Made by a program: the position numbers and the translations under genes. Source: an uncultured Elusimicrobia bacterium (GTDB lineage Bacteria > Elusimicrobiota > Elusimicrobia > 2-01-FULL-59-12). Taken from it: a stretch of DNA of 64,000 nt. The DNA is taken from assembly GCA_964604825.1 (NCBI GenBank), contig CAZSAL010000009.1:2479-66478 (forward strand), read 5' to 3'. Shown here piece by piece: positions 41,485 through 64,000 of the stretch; positions within the stretch are counted from its first letter, which is position 1; every line of letters begins with the position of its first letter. A model generated the notes under the pieces. The model searched no databases. It had not been told where the DNA came from and saw only the letters and a list, made by a program, of their open reading frames with translations.

Positions 41485-41557
41485 TCCGGGATCATCTAAC
41501 GGTAGGATGAGAGACTCTGAATCTCTTCGTCTAGGTTCGAATCCTAGTCCCGGAGCC
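41485..41557 (+). tRNA. tRNA-Gln (anticodon CUG)
   Basis: Manually folded cloverleaf: acceptor TCCGGGA/TCCCGGA (U1-A72, typical of bacterial tRNA-Gln), D stem ATCT/GGAT, anticodon stem AGAGA/TCTCT with loop CTCTGAA (anticodon CTG), T arm CTAGG-TTCGAAT-CCTAG, discriminator G, then an encoded CC. Confidence 0.8.
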
Positions 41558-41589: not shown

Positions 41590-42270
41590 ATGAACCGCAT
41601 TCTAATCATCGAAGACGAAAAAGACATTGTCCGGCTGGTGAAATATAACCTGGAAAAACAGGGTTTTGAAGTTTTATCCGCATCTGACGGCGCATCCGGC
41701 CTGGAACTTGCGCGTAAAGAAAAACCCGACCTTATAATCCTCGATTTGATGCTGCCCAAAATTGACGGGCTGGAAATATGCCGGACACTGCGCCAGGATT
41801 CCCGGGTACCGATCATTATGCTCACTGCCAAAAAAGAGGAAGTTGACCGTGTGTTGGGGCTGGAACTCGGTGCCGATGACTACATGACCAAGCCATTCAG
41901 CATGCGTGAATTGCTGGTTCGTATAAAAAATATTCTCCGCAGGGCGCGGGCGGAGGAATCCTCCGTAGAGGCCTTCCAGTGCGGCGATTTGAAGATCGAC
42001 CTGTCGAGATACACGGTGAATTTGAAAGGCAAGCCGGTCTCTCTCAGCTCTAAGGAATTCGAGTTCCTGAAAATATTGATTCAGGCGCACGGCAAGGCGT
42101 TGACCCGTGATCAGCTTCTGGAGCGGGTCTGGGGGTACGATCGCTCCATGGATATTGATACGCGGACGGTGGATCAGCATATCGCGCGCCTCCGGGATAA
42201 ACTGGGCTCAGAAGCCAGGCGTGTTATCACAGTGAAAAATGTCGGGTATCGATTTGCTGTGGAAAAGTAG
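41590..42270 (+). CDS. phoB: OmpR/PhoB-family response regulator
   Basis: Receiver domain (IIEDEKDIV...DLIILDLMLP...MLTAK) plus a winged-helix output (LSSKEFEFLKIL...RTVDQHIARLRDKL). Lies in a pit/phoR context. Confidence 0.8.
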   Translation: MNRILIIEDEKDIVRLVKYNLEKQGFEVLSASDGASGLELARKEKPDLIILDLMLPKIDGLEICRTLRQDSRVPIIMLTAKKEEVDRVLGLELGADDYMTKPFSMRELLVRIKNILRRARAEESSVEAFQCGDLKIDLSRYTVNLKGKPVSLSSKEFEFLKILIQAHGKALTRDQLLERVWGYDRSMDIDTRTVDQHIARLRDKLGSEARRVITVKNVGYRFAVEK

Positions 42271-43965: not shown

Positions 43966-45738
43966 ATGCATTTTACCTTCGCCAAAAAACTTACCTTAAG
44001 TTATCTGTTTGTCGTCCTTGTAACACTTGTCTTGACAGGACTGTTGTTCACCCGTCGTCTCCGGTCCGATTTTATTTCACACCTGGAACAATCGCTCGTC
44101 TCACAGGCAATTCTCACCCGCGCCGACACGATGCCCGCCTTTGAACAAAAGGTCGGGGCATATCAGTCCATAGTTCAGGCTCTGGCCAGGGAAACAGGAT
44201 CTCGGATTACTTTGATTCGCGCGGATGGAACCGTCATATCGGATTCCGAACAGGATCCCGGCGAATTAGCCGGTATGGAAAATCATCTGATGAGACCGGA
44301 AGTTCAGGCTGCCCTGAATACGGGCAGTGGTAAAGCGATACGCTACAGCAAAACCCTCCAAGAAGACATGCTTTATGTGGCTGTGCCGGCAGTATCCTCG
44401 GGAAAGCTTAATGGAGTTGTGCGAACCGCGTTGCCTCTGACTGAAGTAAACCGGCGGATTTCAACCTTTCAGAAAGATCTGCTTCGTGCAGGAGCAGCAG
44501 CCATGATCTTCGCACTGGCTATCGCGGTGCTGTCTGTTCGGCGCGTCAGCAGACCGCTTGAAAAATTGACTGATCTGGCGCAAAGGATTGGGAGAGGGGA
44601 ATATCCAGCCGAACAGTCTGTCGAAACGCCTGACGAATTTGGTCAACTGGCCAAAACGCTGGTTGAAATGTCTAAACGTATTCAGGAAAAGGTTCAGGAG
44701 CTGAATCTTGAACGCACCCAACTGGCGGCGATACTTTCGGCCCTTGTTGAAAGCGTGATCGCTGTTGACCACGAAGGAAAAATTCTCTTTTTGAACCCGG
44801 CTGCCGAGAGTCTGTTCCGCGTAAGTGCTTTGCAGGTTAAAGGCCGTCCAATGCTGGAAGCGCTCCGGCACAGTGTGTTGAGTGACGTTATCGCTAAAAC
44901 GCTGACCGGCAAAAAAGTTGTTGCTGAGGAAATAACGGTCCATTCTCCGGAAGAACATATCCTTGCCGTTCAGGCTCTGCCCGTGGCTTATGGCGAAGGG
45001 CGGACAGGGATACTGGTCGCGCTCAACGACATTACGGATCTGCGGAAGCTTGAACGCGTACGGCAGGAATTCGTTGCCAATGTTACGCATGAGCTCAAAA
45101 CGCCGCTGACGTCAATCAAAGGATTTACGGAGACGCTTCTGGATGGCGCGCTGGAAGACCCTTCTCATAACCGGGAGTTTTTAACGACAATCCAGGAACA
45201 TGCGACCCGCCTTGGGTTTCTGATTGATGACCTGCTGGATCTGGCGGCAATCGAGGCGAAAAGAATGGAGTACCGGTTCGAATCGGTCTCGGTGCCTGAT
45301 GTCGTAGAGCGCATCTTAAAAGGGCTTGCACCCATGGCAAAAGGAGGAAAAATCCAGATTCAAAACGATCTTTCTCCTTCTTTGCCAAAAGTACGAGCTG
45401 ACCGCGATAAACTGGCGCAGGTTTTTATCAACCTGATTGATAATGCCATTAAATTTAACAAACCTAATGGCTTGATCAAGATTTCCGCTGAAGCAAAGGG
45501 GAAAAACCTGGTTATTTCCGTGCGTGATTCGGGAATTGGAATTCCACAAACGGACCTGCCTCGCATCTTTGAGCGATTTTATCGGGTCGATAAGGCCCGT
45601 TCCCGAGAAATGGGGGGCACTGGCCTCGGCCTTTCCATTGTGAAACACTTGGTTGAGGCCCATCATGGGACGGTGAGCGTCCAAAGTATCGTTGATCAAG
45701 GTTCCAATTTTACTGTAAGCCTGCCTTTGGCGCTCTAG
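43966..45738 (+). CDS. phoR: Sensor histidine kinase (PhoR-like; TM, HAMP, PAS, HisKA, HATPase)
   Basis: ANVTHELKTPLTSIKGF (H-box), NLIDNAIKF (N), DSGIGIP (G1), GGTGLGLSIV (G2); an N-terminal TM/periplasmic loop and a PAS domain. Confidence 0.8.
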   Translation: MHFTFAKKLTLSYLFVVLVTLVLTGLLFTRRLRSDFISHLEQSLVSQAILTRADTMPAFEQKVGAYQSIVQALARETGSRITLIRADGTVISDSEQDPGELAGMENHLMRPEVQAALNTGSGKAIRYSKTLQEDMLYVAVPAVSSGKLNGVVRTALPLTEVNRRISTFQKDLLRAGAAAMIFALAIAVLSVRRVSRPLEKLTDLAQRIGRGEYPAEQSVETPDEFGQLAKTLVEMSKRIQEKVQELNLERTQLAAILSALVESVIAVDHEGKILFLNPAAESLFRVSALQVKGRPMLEALRHSVLSDVIAKTLTGKKVVAEEITVHSPEEHILAVQALPVAYGEGRTGILVALNDITDLRKLERVRQEFVANVTHELKTPLTSIKGFTETLLDGALEDPSHNREFLTTIQEHATRLGFLIDDLLDLAAIEAKRMEYRFESVSVPDVVERILKGLAPMAKGGKIQIQNDLSPSLPKVRADRDKLAQVFINLIDNAIKFNKPNGLIKISAEAKGKNLVISVRDSGIGIPQTDLPRIFERFYRVDKARSREMGGTGLGLSIVKHLVEAHHGTVSVQSIVDQGSNFTVSLPLAL

Positions 45739-45848
45739 CCAACAACAGATCCTTTACCTACGTGTAGCCGCCTGGAAACCTAAACTCAATCCCAAATCGA
45801 TTCAACAGTACGCCCCTCTTTTAATAGAGGATATTTTTGTCACACAAA

Positions 45849-45892
45849 TGTTACGTGGTTGTTACGGCAACGTTACAAACAACATTTATAAT
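45849..45892 (+). promoter_or_regulatory. Three 7-mer direct repeats at 11-bp periodicity (TGTTACG-tggt-TGTTACG-gcaa-CGTTACA) followed by TATAAT: OmpR/PhoB-type response-regulator site plus -10
   Basis: Repeats at 45849-55, 45860-66, 45871-77; TATAAT at 45887-92; an inverted copy CGTAACA at 45902-08. Sits between phoR and the 682-aa ORF. Confidence 0.5.
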
Positions 45893-45948: not shown

Positions 45949-47997
45949 TTGGTTCTTTCACCTCTTTTTCAACGGTTTGTAACGCAGAATATAGTCCTTC
46001 TTTTTCTCTGCAATCCTCTGTTTGATGGTTGTTTAAATTTGGATCCATTTCAGGGACTTTCTCCTGCGCAATTCTGGCTCAGAAACCATTATCCCTCGCT
46101 CCTTACCGCAAAAGCGCTGCAGCAGCATTACGACGATCTTTTGAAAGGTTACGAAGTTCCTCAGACCGGTCTTTTCTTGAGCTTTCCTGAAACGTCAGAT
46201 CAACGTCTTGTCCAGCAGGCCTCTACTTATGATCAGGGTGTTATGGGAATTCTGCTGCTTAAACTGCACGACTTTAAGCGCGTCGCGGCCATCCTGCGGT
46301 TTTATCAGCATGCGTGGCAGGAGGCCAAAGAACGCAGCGGCCCGCGAAAAAACGTATTTGGTTTTGCCAACTTCTACAATGCCTACTACGGTGTTGAAGG
46401 AGTAGAAAAGACCATGCATGTCGGGCCGAACGTCTGGATCGGTCTTCTCGCGTCGCGCTATTATCGCCGGACCGGCGAGATCTGGGCGCGCGACCTGGCG
46501 CTTGAAATAGCGCGTTGGGAAATCCGGAGCGTTCCCCATACAGACGGCGCGGTAGCCATGGGTGAAATTCCCTGGAACGGCGCTCCCTGGTCTAATATTT
46601 ATTCGACAGAAAATAATATCAGTACCTACGCGTTCCTCTCCGATTTGCTCAAGGGGGAATCCCTTCCACCGGCAGACATGGAGTTAATCCGCAAAGAACG
46701 CAAAGCGATCGGCCGCTGGCTTTTGACCAAAGCCTATCATACGGACCAGAACGCTGTGATCCGCGGGTTCAATCCCGGCGGTGTTGACGATATTCCCGCA
46801 GTGGATTCCTATACCTGGTACATCGACGCCCTGCGGCCGGGGACATTCGAAAAAATGGGAATTCCTCTGCGCCGTCTGATGAAGCGCCTGCACGAAGAAT
46901 TCTTGGTGAAGGTAGGTCGTTTAAAAGGCATTGATTGCGTTGATCAGCGGACGGCAAAAGCCACTTATGAAGATGCGCTGCATGAACGTATCATGGATCC
47001 GAATTGGCATCGCCCCGAAGGAGACGATCACCGTCTGATCTGGTACGAAGGAACAGGACAGTTTATTGTAGCGCTGCAGGACATGGCGGTTCATGCCGTG
47101 AACCAGGCTTTTGAACTCCCGGAAGGTCCGCAGCGCGACCGGGTTCTTGGTGTGGCCGAAGGCTGGCTGCAGGAGGCAAAAGAATACGCCGATGCCATGG
47201 ATGCCGCCGCTTTCCGCACGGAAGCCTCCGGTGTCAGCTATCCACTCGCTACAAGGGGAAGATTTTATCTGTTCGGCTGGCCCGCTCCGCAGCCGGCAAG
47301 AGATCATCCTGCTAATGCCGTGGCGCCTTTGGCCTGGCGGATTTTTGCCGGGATGGGCTATGAACCCTTATCTGATACGGATCTTAAACCTTCAGGGAAG
47401 TGGTACGTAAAAAAAGCGTCGTATCATTATGAAACGGTCCGCGATCCTGGAACGGAAATCCTTTATGGCGCCAGCGAGGAAATGTCTATCAGGGCCTGGC
47501 AGCTGTTCGAGTCCGGGCTATACGACAAGGCCTGGAGGCAATCGCGGGCGACGATCCACCTGTGGGAAGAAGACGCCGGAAGGCTGGAAGCGCGCAAAGA
47601 GAAGGCAGTGGGCGGCTTTCTTTTCTATGACGGCACGGTAGCATCTTTTCAGCGCATTCACGATTACTGGGCGCTCAATGACGTGGCCGCCAGCTATTTT
47701 GTCTGCGCGGAGATCTGCGATCGCGAGGGGCGCTATCAGGAAGCAAAAATCATCTTTTCTCACATCTTAAAGGATTTTACGCTGGCCCAAATTTGGGATA
47801 AACGGGGCTGGTTCTGGACGCCTGCTGAGACCATCGCCGAGGATTTCATCGCACCGTTTCCTGAACGTTACTCTGAGCTTATGGCTGATGTCCCGGAAAC
47901 GTTCAGGATCAATCCCCGATTTATTCCCGGATGGAATTCAACTCCTCAAGCAATGGCAGCCAAGACTCCGCAGTGGTATTACGACGCAATCCAATGA
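45949..47997 (+). CDS. Hypothetical protein (682 aa), candidate Pho-regulated
   Basis: Long ORF with no recognised motif. Preceded by an 11-bp-periodic direct-repeat site plus TATAAT. Start uncertain (TTG 45949). Confidence 0.45.
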   Translation: MVLSPLFQRFVTQNIVLLFLCNPLFDGCLNLDPFQGLSPAQFWLRNHYPSLLTAKALQQHYDDLLKGYEVPQTGLFLSFPETSDQRLVQQASTYDQGVMGILLLKLHDFKRVAAILRFYQHAWQEAKERSGPRKNVFGFANFYNAYYGVEGVEKTMHVGPNVWIGLLASRYYRRTGEIWARDLALEIARWEIRSVPHTDGAVAMGEIPWNGAPWSNIYSTENNISTYAFLSDLLKGESLPPADMELIRKERKAIGRWLLTKAYHTDQNAVIRGFNPGGVDDIPAVDSYTWYIDALRPGTFEKMGIPLRRLMKRLHEEFLVKVGRLKGIDCVDQRTAKATYEDALHERIMDPNWHRPEGDDHRLIWYEGTGQFIVALQDMAVHAVNQAFELPEGPQRDRVLGVAEGWLQEAKEYADAMDAAAFRTEASGVSYPLATRGRFYLFGWPAPQPARDHPANAVAPLAWRIFAGMGYEPLSDTDLKPSGKWYVKKASYHYETVRDPGTEILYGASEEMSIRAWQLFESGLYDKAWRQSRATIHLWEEDAGRLEARKEKAVGGFLFYDGTVASFQRIHDYWALNDVAASYFVCAEICDREGRYQEAKIIFSHILKDFTLAQIWDKRGWFWTPAETIAEDFIAPFPERYSELMADVPETFRINPRFIPGWNSTPQAMAAKTPQWYYDAIQ

Positions 47998-48121
47998 TCC
48001 CTCATAATGTGACAACTGCATGACAAAAAGTCCCGAAATTTCATGGGACCTTTTGCCCTCGATTTTTAGCCCTTCGCTCTATCGATAAATTCCCTGCATC
48101 CAGCTACAATCTTCTCGTCGA

Positions 48122-54208: not shown

Positions 54209-54281
54209 GATATCTCCGTCACCCTGCTGTCATCCAGTTTTTACTCCGCCATGACTCCATTTCGCCGCCGTTCGTGCCACA

Positions 54282-55358: not shown

Positions 55359-55796
55359 CTAACGCAATGAAAAAATGAAAAGGATTGCTGCGCAGAGAAG
55401 CATCCGCCAGTGGTCGGCAGGGAGTCCCCACAACCATTTAGTATGCCATGTGGCTTTATGGGGATTGTGATTTTTCCATCCGAAAGCGGGATTAGCCAGA
55501 AACCAGACCAAATCTTCCACCACCCAGAAAACAAAAATCCAGGAGATGGCCCGGAATTCAAGCCGGGCATTCCATGTCCATGACCAAACAAACGGCATGT
55601 GGAAAACCGCAATAATGAAGGAAAAAGCCCACAGATGGTAACCCGTCAGGGGGCGGTCCCCTAAGGCAATATTAAGGAGAGGATGTTTTATCCGCCAGGT
55701 CGGCAGGTTTGCGGCCCAGCCGCCGGTGCCTTCGATTTCAATTTCCAGTTTGGCCCAGATATAGGCGGCCACAAGAACAAAGACAAATTCCCGAAT
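55359..55796 (-). CDS. Small integral membrane protein (hypothetical), last gene of the PlcP-like operon
   Basis: Trp-rich hydrophobic 145-aa product from the internal Met (MIREFVFVLVAAYIW...). That start abuts the upstream GT28 gene stop. Confidence 0.35.
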   Translation of the reverse strand: MREFVFVLVAAYIWAKLEIEIEGTGGWAANLPTWRIKHPLLNIALGDRPLTGYHLWAFSFIIAVFHMPFVWSWTWNARLEFRAISWIFVFWVVEDLVWFLANPAFGWKNHNPHKATWHTKWLWGLPADHWRMLLCAAILFIFSLR

Positions 55797-56923
55797 CATG
55801 CAACCATTGAATGCGAGATTATATTTTCGGCTATCGCGAAGGCGGCTTTGGGCCGGGAACATCGGGTGATATTTTTCCCAAGTTCCTGCCGTAGCAGGGG
55901 TTCGCTCATGGTGAGCAGAACAATGGAAGGCAGATCCTCAAAAGCGGGAGCTCTCAGCGCAGCGTGCTGTGAAGCAAGGAAGCGCGCATTGCGTTCCTCC
56001 TGTCCCGGGATCGGAGAAATCAGAATCATCAGTTTTTTCTTGGCCAGACATTCAGAAACGGTCAGGCCGCCGGGTTTGGTGATAACTATGTCCGAGACGC
56101 TCAAGAGCTCATGCATGTTATCTACATAGCCGAGATTGTGCAGCGTCATCGCCGGCGGAGGCGTGATACGGTTCAGGCGTTCGCGCAGTTCCGCGTTGTT
56201 CCCTGAAATCGTAACCACCTGGAAAGCTCCGGGCAGAGTCAGAATCCGGTTGACCGCTTTTTCCAGAGACGCAAGCCCCAGACCGCCGGTAAGCATAACC
56301 AGAACAGGCCGGACGGGGTCGAGATGGAATTTCCTGTAGAGGGCCGCAAGATTTACCGCGTCCGTAAATGCCGGATGAACCGGAATACCGGTTACTGAAA
56401 TGCGTTCGTTTGGAATTCCCCTGGCCGCGAGCGCTTTGACCAGACCTTCATGCGCTACATAATACCGGGAGATGTTGCGGGAAATCCAGAAGGGGTGAAT
56501 GCTGTAATCCGTAATCACGCATTCGAGCGGGATGGATCGCAAAGCTTCATCCGGAGCAATCGCCATAAGCTGAGGGATAAGGAAATGAGTGGTAACTATC
56601 AAGTCGGGTTTAAAATTCCTGACGCAACCAAAAAAACGCGAAACGAATGATCTCTGAGCGCGGCAGAAAATGGGAGTGAGTTTTGACTCAGGCTGTCGGC
56701 GGTCCCAGAAGTGATAAAGGCGGCCCCACAGGGATGGCGCGCGGTTCACGGCAAAGCGATAGCCGTCCAGATATAAACGCCGGAATGCCGGCGCCGCATA
56801 ATCTGTTGCGTCGATATGAAGCGTTTCAATTTCCGGCGCAGTGCGGCGCAGCGCTTCACGGATGGCTTCTGCCGCGCGCACATGGCCGCAGCCTGTCCGG
56901 ACCGATGTGATGAGAATTTTCAC
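55796..56923 (-). CDS. Diacylglycerol glycosyltransferase (MGDG-synthase-like, GT28 family)
   Basis: N-terminal MKILITSVRTGCGHVRAAEAIREAL (MGDG_synth-like), C-terminal GT-B half (ITKPGGLTVSECLAKKKLMIL). Confidence 0.65.
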   Translation of the reverse strand: MKILITSVRTGCGHVRAAEAIREALRRTAPEIETLHIDATDYAAPAFRRLYLDGYRFAVNRAPSLWGRLYHFWDRRQPESKLTPIFCRAQRSFVSRFFGCVRNFKPDLIVTTHFLIPQLMAIAPDEALRSIPLECVITDYSIHPFWISRNISRYYVAHEGLVKALAARGIPNERISVTGIPVHPAFTDAVNLAALYRKFHLDPVRPVLVMLTGGLGLASLEKAVNRILTLPGAFQVVTISGNNAELRERLNRITPPPAMTLHNLGYVDNMHELLSVSDIVITKPGGLTVSECLAKKKLMILISPIPGQEERNARFLASQHAALRAPAFEDLPSIVLLTMSEPLLRQELGKNITRCSRPKAAFAIAENIISHSMVA

Positions 56924-56981
56924 CCCACCACCTCATTGGGTACGACAATACCCGCCGTCGGTGTGCAATGAGGTGGTGGGA

Positions 56982-57875
56982 TCATGAAACGCTCACCGCA
57001 ACCGGCGGGGCATTCTCTTGCCGGGATTTTTCCGGGGACATGATCTCAATCCAGGAAAGCATCTCCAGCCGGCCGTCGAAGTGCTCTACCAGGGCAGTGG
57101 CGCTTTCCACCCAGTCGCCGTCGTTGCAATAAAGAACGCCGTTACACTCGCGGATTTCCGCTTTATGAATGTGTCCGCAGACGATGCCGTCCAGCTTACG
57201 GTGCCGGCATTCCTGAACAACCGCTTCTTCGAATGAGGAAATAAAGTTAACCGCATTTTTGACCTTGTTTTTTAAGTACGCCGAGAAGGACCAGTAATGG
57301 TATCCCAGCTTCAAGCGGAAATGATTGAAAATCCGGTTGATGACCAGAGCCACTTCGTAAGCTTCATCGCCGATCCTTGCCAGCCAGCGCGCGAATTTGA
57401 CGACATTGTCGAATTGATCGCCATGCAGGACGAGAAGCTGTTTGCCGTCGGCAGTTCGGTGAATAATTTCTGAGGCAATGGTGATCCGGCCGAAGACCTG
57501 TTTTCCAAAAGCGCGCAGGAATTCATCATGATTGCCGGAGATCAGGTAAACGGAAGTGCCTTTGCGCGCTTTGCGCAGGATTTTTTGAATAACGTCGTTG
57601 TGCGACTGCGGCCAATACCAGCTTTTCTTAAGCTGCCAGCCGTCAATAATATCTCCTACCAGGTAGAGATAATCGCAGTCTGTTCTGCGCAAGAAATCGA
57701 GCAGAAAGCGTGTTTGTGAGTTGCGCGTTCCAAGGTGCAGGTCAGAAATCCAGACGGTTCTGTACTTCCTGACGCCGTCAATTAAATCTTCATTTAAAGG
57801 ATCAGATACTCCTCCGTGTGAACCTGAATCGGAAGAAAAATTTAAAAGGCTTCGAAAAAGTTCTGTGAAATCCAT
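56982..57875 (-). CDS. LpxH-family metallophosphoesterase, PlcP-like (putative phosphate-starvation phospholipase C)
   Basis: WISDLHLG, LVGDIIDGW, GNHDE, LHGDQFD, GHIHK are the calcineurin-like/LpxH metal ligands in order. Sits 59 nt upstream of a DAG glycosyltransferase and next to a Pho box. Confidence 0.6.
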   Translation of the reverse strand: MDFTELFRSLLNFSSDSGSHGGVSDPLNEDLIDGVRKYRTVWISDLHLGTRNSQTRFLLDFLRRTDCDYLYLVGDIIDGWQLKKSWYWPQSHNDVIQKILRKARKGTSVYLISGNHDEFLRAFGKQVFGRITIASEIIHRTADGKQLLVLHGDQFDNVVKFARWLARIGDEAYEVALVINRIFNHFRLKLGYHYWSFSAYLKNKVKNAVNFISSFEEAVVQECRHRKLDGIVCGHIHKAEIRECNGVLYCNDGDWVESATALVEHFDGRLEMLSWIEIMSPEKSRQENAPPVAVSVS

Positions 57876-57940
57876 TGATCAAGTTTAACAGGGGTGGGCT
57901 GAATAACCTATTGCAGGCCTGCAAATTCTATGTGAATTGT

Positions 57941-57983
57941 GTGTGACAGTTATGTCATTTATTCGTCATGTATCTTTTACAAA
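57941..57983. promoter_or_regulatory. Pho-box-like site (TGTCAT-ttat-TCGTCAT with an inverted TGTCAC upstream) in the divergent promoter region
   Basis: GTGTGACAG-ttaT-GTCAT-ttat-tcGTCAT: hexamers at 57953-58 and 57964-69 (11-bp spacing), with CTGTCAC on the other strand at 57943-49. A TACAAA -10 candidate lies 9 nt downstream for the + gene. Compare the E. coli Pho box CTGTCAT-N4-CTGTCAT. Confidence 0.5.
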
Positions 57984-58048
57984 TCTGATACAGAATTCAG
58001 GAAACGTATCAGGTAAGATTCAAATCACAAAAAGGGATAAAGGAAATC

Positions 58049-59338
58049 ATGGAAACGCTAAAAGTTGCAATCCCTTTTTCTGCCCAGACGGTCTGCGACC
58101 CAAATCCGCAAAACTATCACATTTACGACAAAGTACGAGCTTTCAACAAGCATTCCGATGAATTGCGCGCCGGGGGGCTCTATTTCTACATGCGCAAGCT
58201 CCAGTCGTCTTCGGAGGCCCACGTTGTGATCAACGGCCAGGACATGCTTATGTTTGGTTCCAATAATTATCTTGGGTTGACTACTCACCCGAAGGTTAAG
58301 GAAGCGGCGCGCAATGCTCTGGAAAAGTACGGGATAGGCGCCGGATCTGTCAGGCTCCTTGGCGGAACATTCAATCTGCACGAGGAACTTGAAGAGCGTT
58401 TGGCCAATTTTAAAGGGACAGAAGCGGCAGTCGCCTATAGTTCCGGGTATGTATCAAACGTAGCGACACTCTCAAGTTTTCTTTCGAAATCTTCAGATTT
58501 GGCCATTATTGACGAAAGAATTCACGCGAGTTTGGTTGACGGCTTGCGGTTTGCCCAAATCCCCTTTCGTGTATTCGGCCATAACGACATGCGTGATCTG
58601 GCCATTAAGCTGGAGGTCTCAAAAGGCAGGGGCAACCTCGCCATTATTGTTGACGGTGTTTACAGCATGGACGGCGATATCGCCAATCTGCCGGACGTCT
58701 ACCGCTTGGCGCGCAAGTATCAGGCGGTTGTCATCATCGATGAAGCGCATGCCACAGGGGTCCTTGGAGCCAGGGGCCGCGGGACGCCGGAACATTTCGG
58801 ACTTCACGGCAGGATTGATCTGGTCATGGGAACCCTCAGTAAAGCGCTGGGAGGTATTGGCGGTTTCGCCGCAGGACCAAAGATCCTGGTTGACTATTTG
58901 AAACATGTGGCCCGCGGCTTCGTTTTCAGCGCGGCGCTCCCTCCGGCAGTGTGCGCAGGACTGATCGCCTCCATCGACGTGATTGAAAATGAACCAGAAT
59001 GGCTTATTCGCCTGCGGGAAAATACAGGTTTATTAAGGAAAGGACTTCAGGAGCTGGGGTACAACACGGCTCACAGCGAAACGCCGATCATCCCCATTAT
59101 CCTAGGTGAAGACCTGACCGCCTATCAAATGACCCGCGCCCTTCATATGCTTGGGGTTTATGTCAGTCCGGTCACGTTCCCCGCAGTCAAAAGGGGTCAA
59201 TCCCGGATCCGGGTAAGCACTATGGCAACTCATACCACACAGGATATTTTAAAAGCCCTGGAAGCGTTTGATAAAGCCAGGAAAATAGTGCCAAATCTTC
59301 CGCTGCCCGAGAGCTTAACACAACACAACGCAGCTTAA
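58049..59338 (+). CDS. alpha-Oxoamine synthase family PLP enzyme (Kbl / serine palmitoyltransferase / BioF-like)
   Basis: FGSNNYLGL, DEAHATG, GTLSKALGG (PLP-Lys); ~400 aa. Confidence 0.75.
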   Translation: METLKVAIPFSAQTVCDPNPQNYHIYDKVRAFNKHSDELRAGGLYFYMRKLQSSSEAHVVINGQDMLMFGSNNYLGLTTHPKVKEAARNALEKYGIGAGSVRLLGGTFNLHEELEERLANFKGTEAAVAYSSGYVSNVATLSSFLSKSSDLAIIDERIHASLVDGLRFAQIPFRVFGHNDMRDLAIKLEVSKGRGNLAIIVDGVYSMDGDIANLPDVYRLARKYQAVVIIDEAHATGVLGARGRGTPEHFGLHGRIDLVMGTLSKALGGIGGFAAGPKILVDYLKHVARGFVFSAALPPAVCAGLIASIDVIENEPEWLIRLRENTGLLRKGLQELGYNTAHSETPIIPIILGEDLTAYQMTRALHMLGVYVSPVTFPAVKRGQSRIRVSTMATHTTQDILKALEAFDKARKIVPNLPLPESLTQHNAA

Positions 59339-59526
59339 TCGACAGACGAATGTTTTCGGGCGGTATCCCTTTCCCTTTTTGTGGATACCGCCCTCTTTTT
59401 TTGTGGGAGTTATCTTACATGCCGTCATCCATTTGTCATACAGACTTTACATCGTCACAATGGGCTTCCTGCCGGTTTGCCTTTACAATACCCGCAACAA
59501 TAGAAATCACAAGGGAGGTCACTGAC

Positions 59527-59697
59527 ATGGTGATCCAGATGAAAGAAGAGTTCCTTGCGGCGAGCATCCGCAAACAGGCCGAGACACTAAATAACCTGAT
59601 TCATGAAATGGAAACTGAAAAATTGGTTGGAGACGCTCTGGCCTGGAGAATCCGGGCGGTGGAATTACAACTGCGACGAATCCGCGAAGCCGCTTAA
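59527..59697 (+). CDS. Small helical hypothetical protein
   Basis: 56-aa coiled-coil-like product (MVIQMKEEFLAASIRKQAETLNNLIHEM...). Weak call. Confidence 0.25.
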   Translation: MVIQMKEEFLAASIRKQAETLNNLIHEMETEKLVGDALAWRIRAVELQLRRIREAA

Positions 59698-61451: not shown

Positions 61452-62483
61452 ATGACCATGTTTAAGAAATTTTCCGCTCTAAGTTTGGCCGCAAGCCTTC
61501 TCGCCGGTTCTTGCAATGTCTGGGCGGATGCGCTCCTGGTAAATGGCGCAGGCGCTACTTTCCCTTACCCAATTTACTCCAAATGGTTCGATGAATATCA
61601 CAAGATTCATCCGGACATCCAATTCAACTATCAGTCTATTGGCTCCGGCGGGGGAATTCGCCAGATCACAGCCAAAACGGTTGATTTCGGCGCTACGGAC
61701 GGGCCCATGTCTGACGAGCAGTTAAAAGCCGCTCCGGACATGATCATGCATTTCCCCACAGTGATGGGCGGTGTTGTTCCTGTTTACAATGTCGAAGGCG
61801 TAACTGCCTCCTTGAAGTTTTCACAGAAGGCGATTGCGGGCATTTTTCTGGGAACCATCACTTCATGGAACGACCGCGAGATTCAAAAGGCGAATCCGGA
61901 CGTAAAATTACCCGCAGCGCCGATCGTCGTTATCCATCGTTCCGATGGTTCAGGCACGTCCTTCTGCTGGACAGACTTCTTAAGTAAGATCAGCCCCGAT
62001 TGGCTGTCTAAGGTTGGCAAAGGGACATCGGTGAATTGGCCAGTCGGTCTGGGCGGCAAAGGGAATGAAGGGGTGGCCGGTCTGGTCCGGCAGACGCCGA
62101 ATTCCATTGGTTATGTTGAACTGATCTACGCCACGCAGAACAAAATCAGCTACGGAGCCCTGCAGAACAAGTCGGGGAAATATGTTCAGTGTTCTCTGGA
62201 ATCGGTTACGGCTGCGGCTGCGGGCGCTGCAGGCAACATGCCCGATGACTTCCGCGTTTCCATCACCAACTCGCAGGGAGCCGACGTCTATCCGGCATCG
62301 ACCTTCACCTGGCTGCTGGTGTATCAAAATCCGTCGGATAAAACAAAGGGTGAGGCGCTGGTGGGTTTCATGAAATGGATGCTTACAGATGGCCAGAAAT
62401 TTGCCACCAACCTGGGGTATGCTCCCCTGCCGGTCAGTGTTATTGAAAAAGAAGAAGCCGCTATTCAGAAAGTAAAAATCTGA
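61452..62483 (+). CDS. pstS: Phosphate ABC transporter substrate-binding protein
   Basis: Signal peptide, GAGATFPYPIYSKWFDEY, SIGSGGGI, TDGPMSDEQL are the typical PstS blocks. Confidence 0.85.
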   Translation: MTMFKKFSALSLAASLLAGSCNVWADALLVNGAGATFPYPIYSKWFDEYHKIHPDIQFNYQSIGSGGGIRQITAKTVDFGATDGPMSDEQLKAAPDMIMHFPTVMGGVVPVYNVEGVTASLKFSQKAIAGIFLGTITSWNDREIQKANPDVKLPAAPIVVIHRSDGSGTSFCWTDFLSKISPDWLSKVGKGTSVNWPVGLGGKGNEGVAGLVRQTPNSIGYVELIYATQNKISYGALQNKSGKYVQCSLESVTAAAAGAAGNMPDDFRVSITNSQGADVYPASTFTWLLVYQNPSDKTKGEALVGFMKWMLTDGQKFATNLGYAPLPVSVIEKEEAAIQKVKI

Positions 62484-63029: not shown

Positions 63030-64000
63030 ATGAGCCCCGTTAACTGGTCATTGCGCAAACCGATTACGGTTATTGTGCTCATGTGCGCCGCAGTCCTGTG
63101 CGCTGCCTTTGCCCTCCTGCGCATGCCGCGCGATATCTTCCCTGACCTGCAGATTCCCGTTATTTACGTTTCCCAGCCTTACGGCGGCATGAGCCCTGAG
63201 CAGATGGAAGGATTCATCACCTATTACTATGAGTACCATTTCCTTTACATCACAGGCATCGACTATATAGAGACAAAGTCCATCCAGGGCGCAGCCCTTA
63301 TCAAGCTCCAGTTCCATCCCGGAACCAACATGGCCGAGGCCATGGCAGAGACGGTTTCCGAAGTCAGCCGCGCCCGCGCCTTCATGCCTCCCGGAACCGT
63401 TACCCCCTTTGTGCTGCGTTTTGACGCGGGCAGTGTTCCCATAGGAGACCTGGTCTTTTCCAGCCCGTCGCGCGGCATTGGCGAGATTCAGGACCTGGCT
63501 TTAAACCGGGTGCGCCCGCTTTTTGCGACTCTCCCCGGAGTCTCGGCGCCGCCTCCCTTTGGAGCCAGTCAGCGCACGATCGTCGTCACGATTGATCCAA
63601 AAGCCCTGCGCGCCCGGAACCTCTCTCTCGAGGACGTGGTTAAGGCAATCAACGATTCCAACGTGATAACTCCTGCGGGGAACCTGATTATGTCCGGGCG
63701 GTATCCCATTGTCCCGATGAATTCTCCGGTTACCGATATTCAGCATCTGCGGGATGTTCCTCTTCGCCTGGGCACCTACCCGACGGTTTTCCTGCGCGAT
63801 GTGGGAAAGGTCGAAGATGCCACCGATATCCAGACGGGATACGCCCTGGTCAACGGCAGGAGAGCCATATATATCCCGGTAACCAAACGCGCCGACGCAT
63901 CCACGCTCGCTGTAGTGGCTTTAGTGCGCAAGAACCTGCGCCGTTTTCAGGATGTATTGCCTAAGGACGTCAAGGTGACCTATGAGTTTGACCAGTCCGT
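63030..64000 (+). CDS. RND-family efflux transporter (AcrB/CzcA-like), N-terminal part, truncated by window end
   Basis: Manual translation from ATG 63030: [60 protein letters not shown]... This is the typical RND TM1 plus periplasmic porter start, and it reads open to the end of the window. Confidence 0.8.

Follow-up and report, generated by a model that had tools for sequence, protein, structure and literature searches.

A predicted Pho-regulated plcP-GT28 glycolipid module beside an alpha-oxoamine synthase gene in a phosphate island of an uncultured Elusimicrobia bacterium

In the genome of an uncultured Elusimicrobia bacterium (assembly GCA_964604825.1), two sets of genes run in opposite directions from a 173-bp spacer, and the question raised by this locus is whether they serve to replace phospholipids by phosphorus-free lipids when phosphate is scarce. 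We analyzed the 64,000 nucleotides around it (contig CAZSAL010000009.1, positions 2,479 to 66,478, hereafter the window). The original prediction had read the locus as a divergent module centred on a Pho box, with the genes of a PlcP-like metallophosphoesterase, a diacylglycerol (DAG) glycosyltransferase of family GT28 and a small membrane protein on one side and an alpha-oxoamine synthase (AOS) gene on the other, and the list of open reading frames (ORFs) bears out the four genes and the spacer between them (Table 1). The module itself is supported by our analysis, the window also encoding a PhoB/PhoR-like pair, Pit and PstS. It is probable that its plcP-GT28 core is a Pho-regulated glycolipid system in which phospholipids are swapped for sugar lipids in phosphate starvation. 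More tentatively, and with somewhat less than an even chance, the AOS and a nearby GNAT acyltransferase make a second phosphorus-free lipid (an N-acyl-aminolipid or a ceramide-like lipid).

The plcP product matches Metallophos above the gathering score (48.8 bits) and, as predicted, carries all metal ligands of an LpxH-like phosphoesterase (D45/H47, D75, N115-H116-D117, H151, and H235/H237). With LpxH it has the subfamily fold, the metal-ligand motifs and a helical insertion at the position of the lipid-binding cap in common, and LpxH was the only solved relative in the PDB search (E ~1e-7). The public names of the homologues all read “UDP-2,3-diacylglucosamine diphosphatase/LpxH”. Unlike LpxH, however, the protein stays far under the cut-offs of the equivalog models (56.5 bits against 134 for NF003743 and 50.1 against 190 for TIGR01854), stands in another genomic context, and shows GNHD where LpxH has GNRD in the alignment (GNRD, with arginine in place of the canonical histidine, is diagnostic of LpxH). 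Among the matches listed, its identity to homologues from alpha- and beta-proteobacteria (e.g., Azospirillum, Magnetospirillum, Paraburkholderia) is 55-66%; for comparison, characterised PlcPs (SMc00171, MED193_17359, PA3219, and PB7211_983) are about 46-51% identical to one another (PMC8528852, PMC9239053). We surveyed 80 proteobacterial plcP loci from these matches, 66 of which had a scorable downstream ORF. The gene directly downstream encoded an Agt-type GT4 enzyme in 36 of the 66 and a GT2-type enzyme in two (one also matching GT21), a GT28 gene followed in none of the 66, and no homologue of the GT28 or the membrane protein was detectable in any of the 80. The consensus of the downstream GT4 genes carries GRVAVEKN and FPSxTDTFG, and the published Agt/GTcp signatures are GRVAxEKN and FPSxTDTFG (PMC8231724). 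By its sub-threshold LpxH scores, its GNHD motif and its grouping with proteins of plcP-agt operons, the phosphoesterase is judged to be PlcP-type, as first proposed, and not LpxH; it is a predicted intracellular phospholipase C that would liberate DAG. A gene for a DAG-consuming glycosyltransferase begins 58 nt downstream (59 nt had been given before) and the pairing is conserved in three related loci (L083, L084, and L085); the predicted Pho box in the plcP promoter is conserved in these relatives at a matching distance.

The glycosyltransferase was called MGDG-synthase-like, and both of its domains agree with this (MGDG_synth, 100.5 bits against a gathering score of 25; Glyco_tran_28_C, 36.9 against 22), as do its relatives in the PDB, a processive DAG beta-glucosyltransferase (9wde, E 6.5e-41) and plant MGD1 (4wyi, E 1.2e-27). 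The best NCBIfam match, the diglucosyl-DAG synthase model, gave 205.7 bits against a cut-off of 500, which leaves the enzyme outside the UgtP equivalog; no Glycos_transf_1 domain was matched, as an Agt of family GT4 would have. GT28 is an inverting family, and a beta-glycosyl-DAG is therefore the expected product. It is also one of the three families of glycoglycerolipid synthases (PMC8231724). The short spacer between plcP and the GT28 gene folds into a perfect 15-bp hairpin (minimum free energy -37.4 kcal/mol, z = -5.2, with none of 200 shuffles folding as well), the 3' arm of which contains the Shine-Dalgarno sequence of the GT28 gene and abuts its GTG start codon. An intrinsic terminator was considered and rejected, as no T-run follows the hairpin; by sequestering the Shine-Dalgarno sequence it may govern translation or mRNA stability. 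In two of the relatives (L083 and L084), the plcP and GT28 genes overlap by 4 nt.

The small membrane protein described as abutting the GT28 gene is indeed present, although its start had to be revised: the most likely start codon, at 55799, overlaps the stop codon of the GT28 gene (ATGA) and gives a protein of 146 amino acids, a length which is also that of the public gene call and fits homologues of 143-161 amino acids. Among the 171 homologues detected, none has a functional name. No Pfam family includes the protein, Foldseek gave no fold match in the PDB (best E 0.87), and a weak DUF981 assignment was dismissed as chance, being present in one of 44 family members and under the gathering score. 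A single family member of 185 amino acids has a precomputed PF13528 match, which we read, unchecked, as a C-terminal fragment of a glycosyltransferase fusion. The AlphaFold model is confident (predicted local distance difference test, pLDDT, of 95) and has helices at residues 2-23, 53-73, 78-102, and 128-145 with a short one at 40-46; the residues E19, E23, G27, W28, H55, E95, D96, N103, and H119 are invariant. The order plcP, GT28 and a membrane protein of about 147 amino acids recurs in L083, L084, and L085, the PlcPs of which are 62-70% identical to that of the window, and the membrane-protein gene follows GT28 genes in these three and in two further loci (L096 and L097). It also occurs away from plcP: a GT28-membrane-protein pair adjoins pstSCAB in a metagenome-assembled genome of Hydrogenedentota, another copy follows a Glyco_trans_1_3/GT28_C gene, and one copy from Phycisphaerae is solitary. 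Since the membrane protein trails a GT28-type gene even without plcP, it is probably a partner of the glycosyltransferase, and the invariant Glu, Asp and His residues in its predicted helices favour an enzymatic or lipid-handling role over that of a passive anchor. Judged by its homologues, it is a conserved third component of the module, from a previously undescribed family. In L084 (9485-11189), a diacylglycerol kinase gene comes after the trio, with a type I phosphodiesterase (Phosphodiest) gene on the opposite strand, and both reinforce the link to DAG and to phosphate scavenging.

The spacer between plcP and the AOS gene had been proposed to hold one classical Pho box. Its 11-bp repeats hold up statistically and are conserved among relatives, but they form two arrays of 11-bp-phased hexamers, placed back to back with a palindromic centre in common; the half-site originally taken as the first of a single array (GTGTGACAG) belongs to the plcP-facing array, the first repeat of which, TGTCAC, is its reverse complement. 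This array ends 45 nt 5' of the plcP ATG, the opposite one 68 nt 5' of the AOS ATG, and a weak additional repeat of the AOS-facing array (TGTGAC, 57942-57947) overlaps the first plcP-facing repeat. The candidate -10 elements are weak on both sides (TAGGTT on the plcP side, about 10 nt past the last repeat, and CAGAAT/TACAGA on the AOS side). A sigma-70 promoter scan returned nothing in the 173 bp, as is expected with activator-dependent promoters, and is thus uninformative there. The half-site TGTCAY agrees with the classical Pho box CTGTCAT (PMC8528852); a PhoB-type protein presumably binds the spacer repeats. A perfect 14-bp palindrome (TTGCAGGCCTGCAA, 57911-57924) overlaps the last plcP-facing repeat and the stretch before the candidate -10 element; it could be the site of a second regulator, or chance.

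For the window as a whole, the E. coli pattern TGTCAT-N5-TGTCAT, fixed a priori and allowing at most one mismatch, gave three matches against 0.10 expected, a number reached by none of 100 shuffles. The degenerate form YGTYAY-N5-YGTYAY, which was derived post hoc from data already seen, gave seven exact matches against 0.15 expected, all seven of them intergenic and between 45.8 and 59.5 kb, and a three-repeat form ending in HTTTAC gave three against 0.05. What appears to be the strongest predicted Pho promoter of the window (45838-45892) precedes the 682-aa ORF, which has no family assignment: four phased repeats (TGTCAC, TGTTAC, TGTTAC, and CGTTAC, 45838-45876) are followed 10 nt on by TATAAT, the arrangement of a classical activator-dependent promoter as in the Pho promoters of E. 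coli. In the related loci L083, L084, and L085, TGTCAY-N5-N6-N5-HTTTAC ends 47-48 nt upstream of plcP, and when the four plcP upstream regions were aligned, the only multi-base invariant runs were TGTCA, TTT.C and AT (-10-like), the sequences having diverged outside these blocks. TGTCAT-N5-ATTTAC stands 5' of the AOS genes of L088 and L098, TGTCAT-N5-TGTCAT-N5-ATTTAC ends 45 nt 5' of the GNAT gene of L098, an equivalent array precedes the homologue of the 56-aa ORF in L086, and in L084 divergent boxes likewise part plcP from an operon containing the AOS. The window resembles PhoB promoters of E. coli in its direct TGTCAY repeats with 11-bp phasing, two to four of them in tandem before phosphate genes and, most clearly at 45838-45892, some 8-10 nt 5' of a candidate -10 element that lacks a -35 partner. 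It differs in that the promoter-proximal repeat is consistently HTTTAC instead of TGTCAY, in that two arrays lie back to back around a common palindromic centre, and in a reversed motif at 48009-48025. The latter is a near-perfect Pho box on the minus strand (TGTCAT-N5-TGTCAC), located in the gap that separates the 682-aa ORF from the giant ORF; it might serve as an antisense promoter, for repression or as a roadblock.

The AOS is a class I/II aminotransferase of the AOS group (Aminotran_1_2, 196 bits) in which the catalytic residues H159, D231, H234, and K265 are present. Its NCBIfam scores stay below the cut-offs of TIGR01825 (440 bits against 535), of the serine palmitoyltransferase (SPT) equivalogs (CFB-type, 419.6 against 640; beta-proteobacterial, 317.9 against 500; alpha-proteobacterial, 264.4 against 670), of Kbl (411.5 against 460 and 330 against 493) and of BioF (388.6 against 426). 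In the PDB, the SPT of Sphingobacterium multivorum scored best (344.6 bits), followed by BioF/Kbl of T. thermophilus (333.9) and Kbl (270-277). The N-terminal acyl-wall segment, GLYFYMR, is like GLYAYFR of SPT and unlike GLYKSER of Kbl. Assignment of the specificity at residue level was dropped, the signals being mixed (comparison according to PMC10196870), and the genomic context is more informative. A metagenome search with the AOS returned seven loci. Orthologues about 70% identical lie in three loci in the order giant ORF, AOS, an ORF of 55-67 amino acids, Porin_5, and pstSCAB-phoU; one orthologue follows a Phosphodiest gene with a Pho box of its own, and in one relative a short-chain dehydrogenase/reductase (SDR) gene stands between the giant ORF and the AOS. 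With orthologues inside pst loci and under Pho boxes of their own, the tie between the AOS and the Pho module is closer than was visible from the sequence alone. Four more distant AOS homologues with 51-60% identity (P0189, P0200, P0202, and P0227) carry PilZ (PF07238), presumably at the N-terminus since it is listed first in their Pfam strings, which hints at cyclic di-GMP control of the AOS clade in other organisms.

The GNAT protein, suggested earlier as a possible OlsB-type N-acyltransferase, is conserved next to the AOS or fused 5' of it, but is not OlsB-like: no match to an OlsB model was found in an NCBIfam scan of 51 members of its family. By sequence, it has only generic GNAT cores, with no specific NCBIfam or PDB family (Acetyltransf_1 at 29.6 bits; a scan of all Pfam gave only the generic Acetyltransf_1 and Acetyltransf_9), and its family has 552 cluster representatives, of which the best 150 are mostly about 350 amino acids long. 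The predicted structure (pLDDT 94) matches N-myristoyltransferases (NMT) over its full length; the best 50 Foldseek matches in the PDB are all NMT (E ~1e-13, template modelling scores 0.59-0.65), at an identity of 10-13% with which a fold similarity does not fix the acceptor substrate. NMT uses long-chain acyl-CoA and acylates the N-termini of proteins, and the modelled fold indicates that the protein is a tandem GNAT of the type using long-chain acyl-CoA. A homologue (37-39% identity) lies directly 5' of the AOS in L089, L090, and L098, and in L086 (1-7905) and L087 (1-7923) it is embedded in a giant ORF just 5' of the AOS. In relatives, giant ORFs of 1437-3717 amino acids occupy the position equivalent to that of the giant ORF in the window. 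The latter has no detectable similarity to those of L086 and L087 (tblastn, E<=1e-3), in which the GNAT segment alone matches the window, i.e., its separate GNAT gene; a lone sub-threshold match was seen in L090 (E 6.8e-4). The window has the plcP operon, in inverted orientation, between its GNAT and AOS genes, which looks like an insertion or rearrangement that produced the back-to-back Pho boxes. Conserved adjacency and fusion point to the GNAT as a functional partner of the AOS.

We propose that this locus forms the part of a PhoB-type phosphate-starvation regulon that remodels membrane lipids. When phosphate runs short, a kinase resembling PhoR and a regulator resembling PhoB, whose genes lie 12-16 kb upstream, would switch on promoters with 11-bp-phased repeats of the form YGTCAY...HTTTAC. 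The leftward array of the spacer would then drive the plcP-GT28-membrane-protein operon; PlcP, a metallophosphoesterase presumably acting at the cytoplasmic face, would cut the phospho-head group off phospholipids to give DAG, and the GT28 enzyme would move a hexose from a UDP-sugar onto this DAG, giving a beta-glycosyl-DAG and sparing phosphorus, with the translationally coupled membrane protein as its presumably obligate partner in an enzymatic or lipid-handling role. The rightward array would drive the AOS, which together with the separately Pho-boxed, NMT-like GNAT may form an N-acylated amino-ketone or a sphingoid-type backbone. Such a Pho-induced lipid is proposed because bacteria follow this logic in making ceramides, joining an AOS to an N-acyltransferase with or without a reductase (PMC11087976). 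The sequence data establish the gene families, the motif counts and the conservation of motif, synteny and fusions; PhoB binding, the substrates and lipid products, the part played by the membrane protein and the inversion or insertion are deduced from them. That both arms hold in their strongest form, with GT28-type PlcP remodelling needing the membrane protein and an unrecognised AOS/NMT-like GNAT lipid pathway inside the pst/Pho locus that arose independently of Spt-bCerS-CerR, seems rather less likely than not.

Several observations count against this interpretation. The orthology of PlcP was judged by a proxy, the plcP-agt context of its nearest homologues among the matches listed; the third plcP-facing repeat, ATTTGC, deviates from HTTTAC; and the motif at 48009-48025 faces away from the giant ORF, which the model leaves unexplained. 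The regulator is under the PhoB cut-off and scores marginally higher with the RpaB model. The related loci are all metagenomic and come from a fairly narrow lineage, so that the conserved synteny partly reflects shared ancestry. On the side of the AOS, the NCBIfam scores come nearest to the Kbl and BioF cut-offs, the loop GAGSVR is like that of Kbl and of Thermus BioF/Kbl and not like GCAGSR of the S. multivorum SPT, and no gene for an acyl carrier protein (ACP), an acyl-ACP synthetase or a reductase lies beside the AOS in the window.

From the scores and the loop comes the main rival to the AOS-GNAT lipid proposal, in which the AOS is an ordinary Kbl or BioF of amino-acid catabolism or biotin synthesis and an accidental neighbour with no lipid role. 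The scores (411 of 460 bits for Kbl, 389 of 426 for BioF) and the similarity of GAGSVR to ASVR of Kbl and GAVR of the Thermus enzyme are joined here by the public annotation as glycine C-acetyltransferase (JGI), yet the AOS attains no Kbl or BioF equivalog cut-off, its best solved relative is an SPT, and its acyl-wall segment is SPT-like. Its context also speaks against a housekeeping enzyme: in L088 and L098 as well as in the window, the AOS has Pho boxes directly 5' of it, the gene has a fixed place in pst loci where it is coupled to the NMT-like GNAT, and no tdh or bio genes were seen in the neighbourhood of the window or in three related pst loci. We regard this rival as unlikely, though it is the strongest of those considered.

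The AOS and the GNAT might, alternatively, act together on something other than a membrane lipid, producing a signal as CqsA does or N-acylating a protein, e.g., the giant protein. Enzymes of the CqsA type are members of the AOS superfamily too, the GNAT model is like NMT, which acylates proteins, and in two loci (L086 and L087) the giant ORF contains the GNAT domain. The CqsA models, however, score far lower (205 bits against about 420 for SPT, Kbl and BioF; 110 bits in the PDB), the pst context offers no link to a signal or a lipoprotein, and the resemblance to NMT, at 10-13% identity, does not fix the acceptor; we consider this improbable and prefer an N-acylated lipid as the product of the pair.

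A third rival concerns the regulator that binds the repeats. The response regulator is beneath the cut-off of every model listed, the two best matches being RpaB (236.4 bits) and PhoB (TIGR02154, 234.5 against 296), with the YycF model about equal. OmpR-family proteins generally bind direct repeats of about 10-11-bp phasing, and another member of the family might bind them here and let the module answer a different signal. This we hold to be quite improbable, as the half-site TGTCAY agrees with the classical Pho box (PMC8528852), the sensor kinase exceeds the PnpS cut-off (NF046044, 434.1 bits against 400; PhoR TIGR02966, 324 against 334), and in several genomes the genes that carry the motif, and those around them, have to do with phosphate (PstS, pstSCAB-phoU, Phosphodiest, and Pit); the response regulator encoded here is a candidate binder of the Pho-box repeats, predicted from its domains. 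The least probable of all, and very improbable, is that the phosphoesterase is the LpxH of lipid A synthesis and the GT28 enzyme part of an envelope glycan pathway, for although the public names and the sole solved relative are LpxH, the LpxH scores (50-56 bits against cut-offs of 134-190), the PDB match at E ~1e-7, GNHD in place of GNRD, closest homologues (among the matches listed) in plcP-agt operons, a glycosyltransferase N-domain of the DAG-specific MGDG_synth type and the conserved Pho box upstream of plcP all oppose it.

The nearest known system is the PlcP-Agt pathway (S. meliloti SMc00171, Phaeobacter MED193, SAR11 HTCC7211, P. aeruginosa PA3219-PA3218, and Methylosinus OB3b), with which the window has in common a gene for an LpxH-like, PlcP-type enzyme that shares its operon, preceded by a Pho box, with a DAG glycosyltransferase gene, and the predicted logic of converting phospholipid via DAG to glycosyl-DAG in phosphate starvation. 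The glycosyltransferase is an inverting GT28 in the window, whereas the known partners of PlcP are the retaining GT4 Agt, the GT21 Pgt or BtaAB; the third, translationally coupled membrane protein is not part of PlcP-Agt; and the host belongs to the Elusimicrobiota, as the names of the closest homologues also suggest, not to the Proteobacteria. The two-domain architecture (MGDG_synth plus GT28 C-terminal domain) is that of UgtP/YpfP of Bacillus and Staphylococcus and of plant and green-bacterial MGD1. These serve the synthesis of lipoteichoic acid or of thylakoid lipids, whereas the GT28 enzyme of the window goes with PlcP and a Pho box and does not reach the diglucosyl-DAG synthase cut-off (206 against 500 bits). 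The downstream partner of the UgtP-type gene in S. aureus is the major facilitator superfamily flippase LtaA, to which the 146-aa protein is unrelated. Reminiscent of the Spt-bCerS-CerR pathway of Caulobacter and Bacteroidota, the AOS is paired with a protein of predicted N-acyltransferase type, and one relative has an SDR gene besides. Unlike there, the AOS is under the SPT cut-offs and no ACP or acyl-ACP synthetase gene lies beside it in the window. Caulobacter makes glycosphingolipids under phosphate starvation.

In the literature consulted, PlcP remodelling is documented mainly in Proteobacteria (marine, soil and clinical), almost always with the genes of GT4 Agt, GT21 Pgt or betaine lipids. 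Our literature search found no work joining PlcP with UgtP, Elusimicrobia or Hydrogenedentes; PlcP and GT28 were mentioned together only where GT28 is named as a family of glycoglycerolipid synthases and where MurG appears in a phylogenetic tree. The plcP-GT28 pairing is a variant of the known PlcP lipid remodelling, which it would extend to a little-studied phylum, most of it uncultured, where another enzyme family would take part and the glycolipid would hence probably be beta-linked rather than alpha-linked; the conserved 146-aa membrane protein is flagged as a missing third component. For the lineage, the regulatory layout (opposed arrays with a common centre and a proximal HTTTAC) offers a clean Pho-box model. 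The most novel lead is the AOS and NMT-like GNAT pair in pst loci, a concrete pointer to another class of lipids that spare phosphorus, and no description of an AOS embedded in pst operons was found in the literature searched. Metagenome genes named “glycine C-acetyltransferase” or “LpxH” may accordingly be phosphorus-stress lipid genes.

Table 1. Coordinates of the genes, arrays and hairpins of the locus in the window
Feature	Position	Strand	Remark
tRNA-Gln (CTG)	41485-41557		immediately 5' of the PhoB-like regulator gene
OmpR/PhoB-type response regulator	41590-42270	+	Response_reg + Trans_reg_C
PhoR/PnpS-type sensor histidine kinase (PAS-HisKA)	43966-45738	+	PnpS NF046044
682-aa ORF	45949-47997		no Pfam domain
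Giant ORF, 2028 aa	48122-54208		no Pfam domain
Predicted Pho-box array upstream of the GNAT gene	54217-54244	+	CGTCAC-N5-TGTCAT-N5-TTTTAC
Tandem-GNAT acyltransferase, 349 aa	54282-55331	+	Acetyltransf_1; NMT-like predicted fold
Predicted membrane protein, 146 aa	55359-55799	-	start overlaps GT28 stop codon
GT28 DAG glycosyltransferase, MGDG-synthase/UgtP-like, 375 aa	55796-56923	-	MGDG_synth + Glyco_tran_28_C
plcP-GT28 intercistronic spacer with hairpin	56924-56981	-	
plcP, PlcP-type metallophosphoesterase, 297 aa	56982-57875	-	Metallophos
Divergent spacer plcP/AOS, 173 bp	57876-58048		
Predicted Pho-box array toward plcP	57921-57948	-	TGTCAC-N5-ATTCAC-N5-ATTTGC; read directly
Predicted Pho-box array toward AOS	57953-57980	+	TGTCAT-N5-CGTCAT-N5-TTTTAC; repeats at 57953, 57964, 57975
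Alpha-oxoamine synthase (AOS), 429 aa	58049-59338	+	Aminotran_1_2
Terminator-like hairpin GGGCGGTATCC...GGATACCGCCC + T-run	59358-59402	+	directly 3' of AOS stop; read from sequence
Predicted Pho-box array upstream of the 56-aa ORF	59423-59450	+	CGTCAT-N5-TGTCAT-N5-CTTTAC
Conserved 56-aa ORF between AOS and porin-like gene	59527-59697	+	
Predicted outer-membrane (porin-like) protein, 492 aa	59900-61378	+	assigned from position alone
PstS phosphate-binding protein	61452-62483	+	TIGR00975

The plcP module lies in a phosphate island of about 21 kb (41590-62483), the order of which is PhoB-like regulator, PhoU_div, PHO4/Pit, PhoR/PnpS-like kinase, 682-aa ORF, 2028-aa ORF, GNAT, plcP operon, AOS, 56-aa ORF, porin-like ORF and PstS. 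An Rfam scan of the window found tRNA only. PstS is well above its cut-off (394.5 bits against 205) and is an orphan in the window, with no pstCAB next to it and an RND pump gene beginning near 63030. The 2028-aa ORF, upstream of the GNAT and AOS genes, has several hydrophobic stretches and a proline-rich segment. The porin-like ORF has no Pfam match, a Porin_5 gene holding the equivalent position in relatives, and neither it nor the 682-aa ORF has detectable similarity to any related locus. The hairpin behind the AOS was omitted by the scan, probably since its loop is longer than 8 nt. The 56-aa ORF, 3' of this terminator and with a three-repeat Pho box of its own, is mostly helical-looking and not ACP-like; a homologue 52% identical occurs in L086 (11424-11741 region), and ORFs of 55-67 amino acids occupy the equivalent slot in L087 and the P0123 locus.

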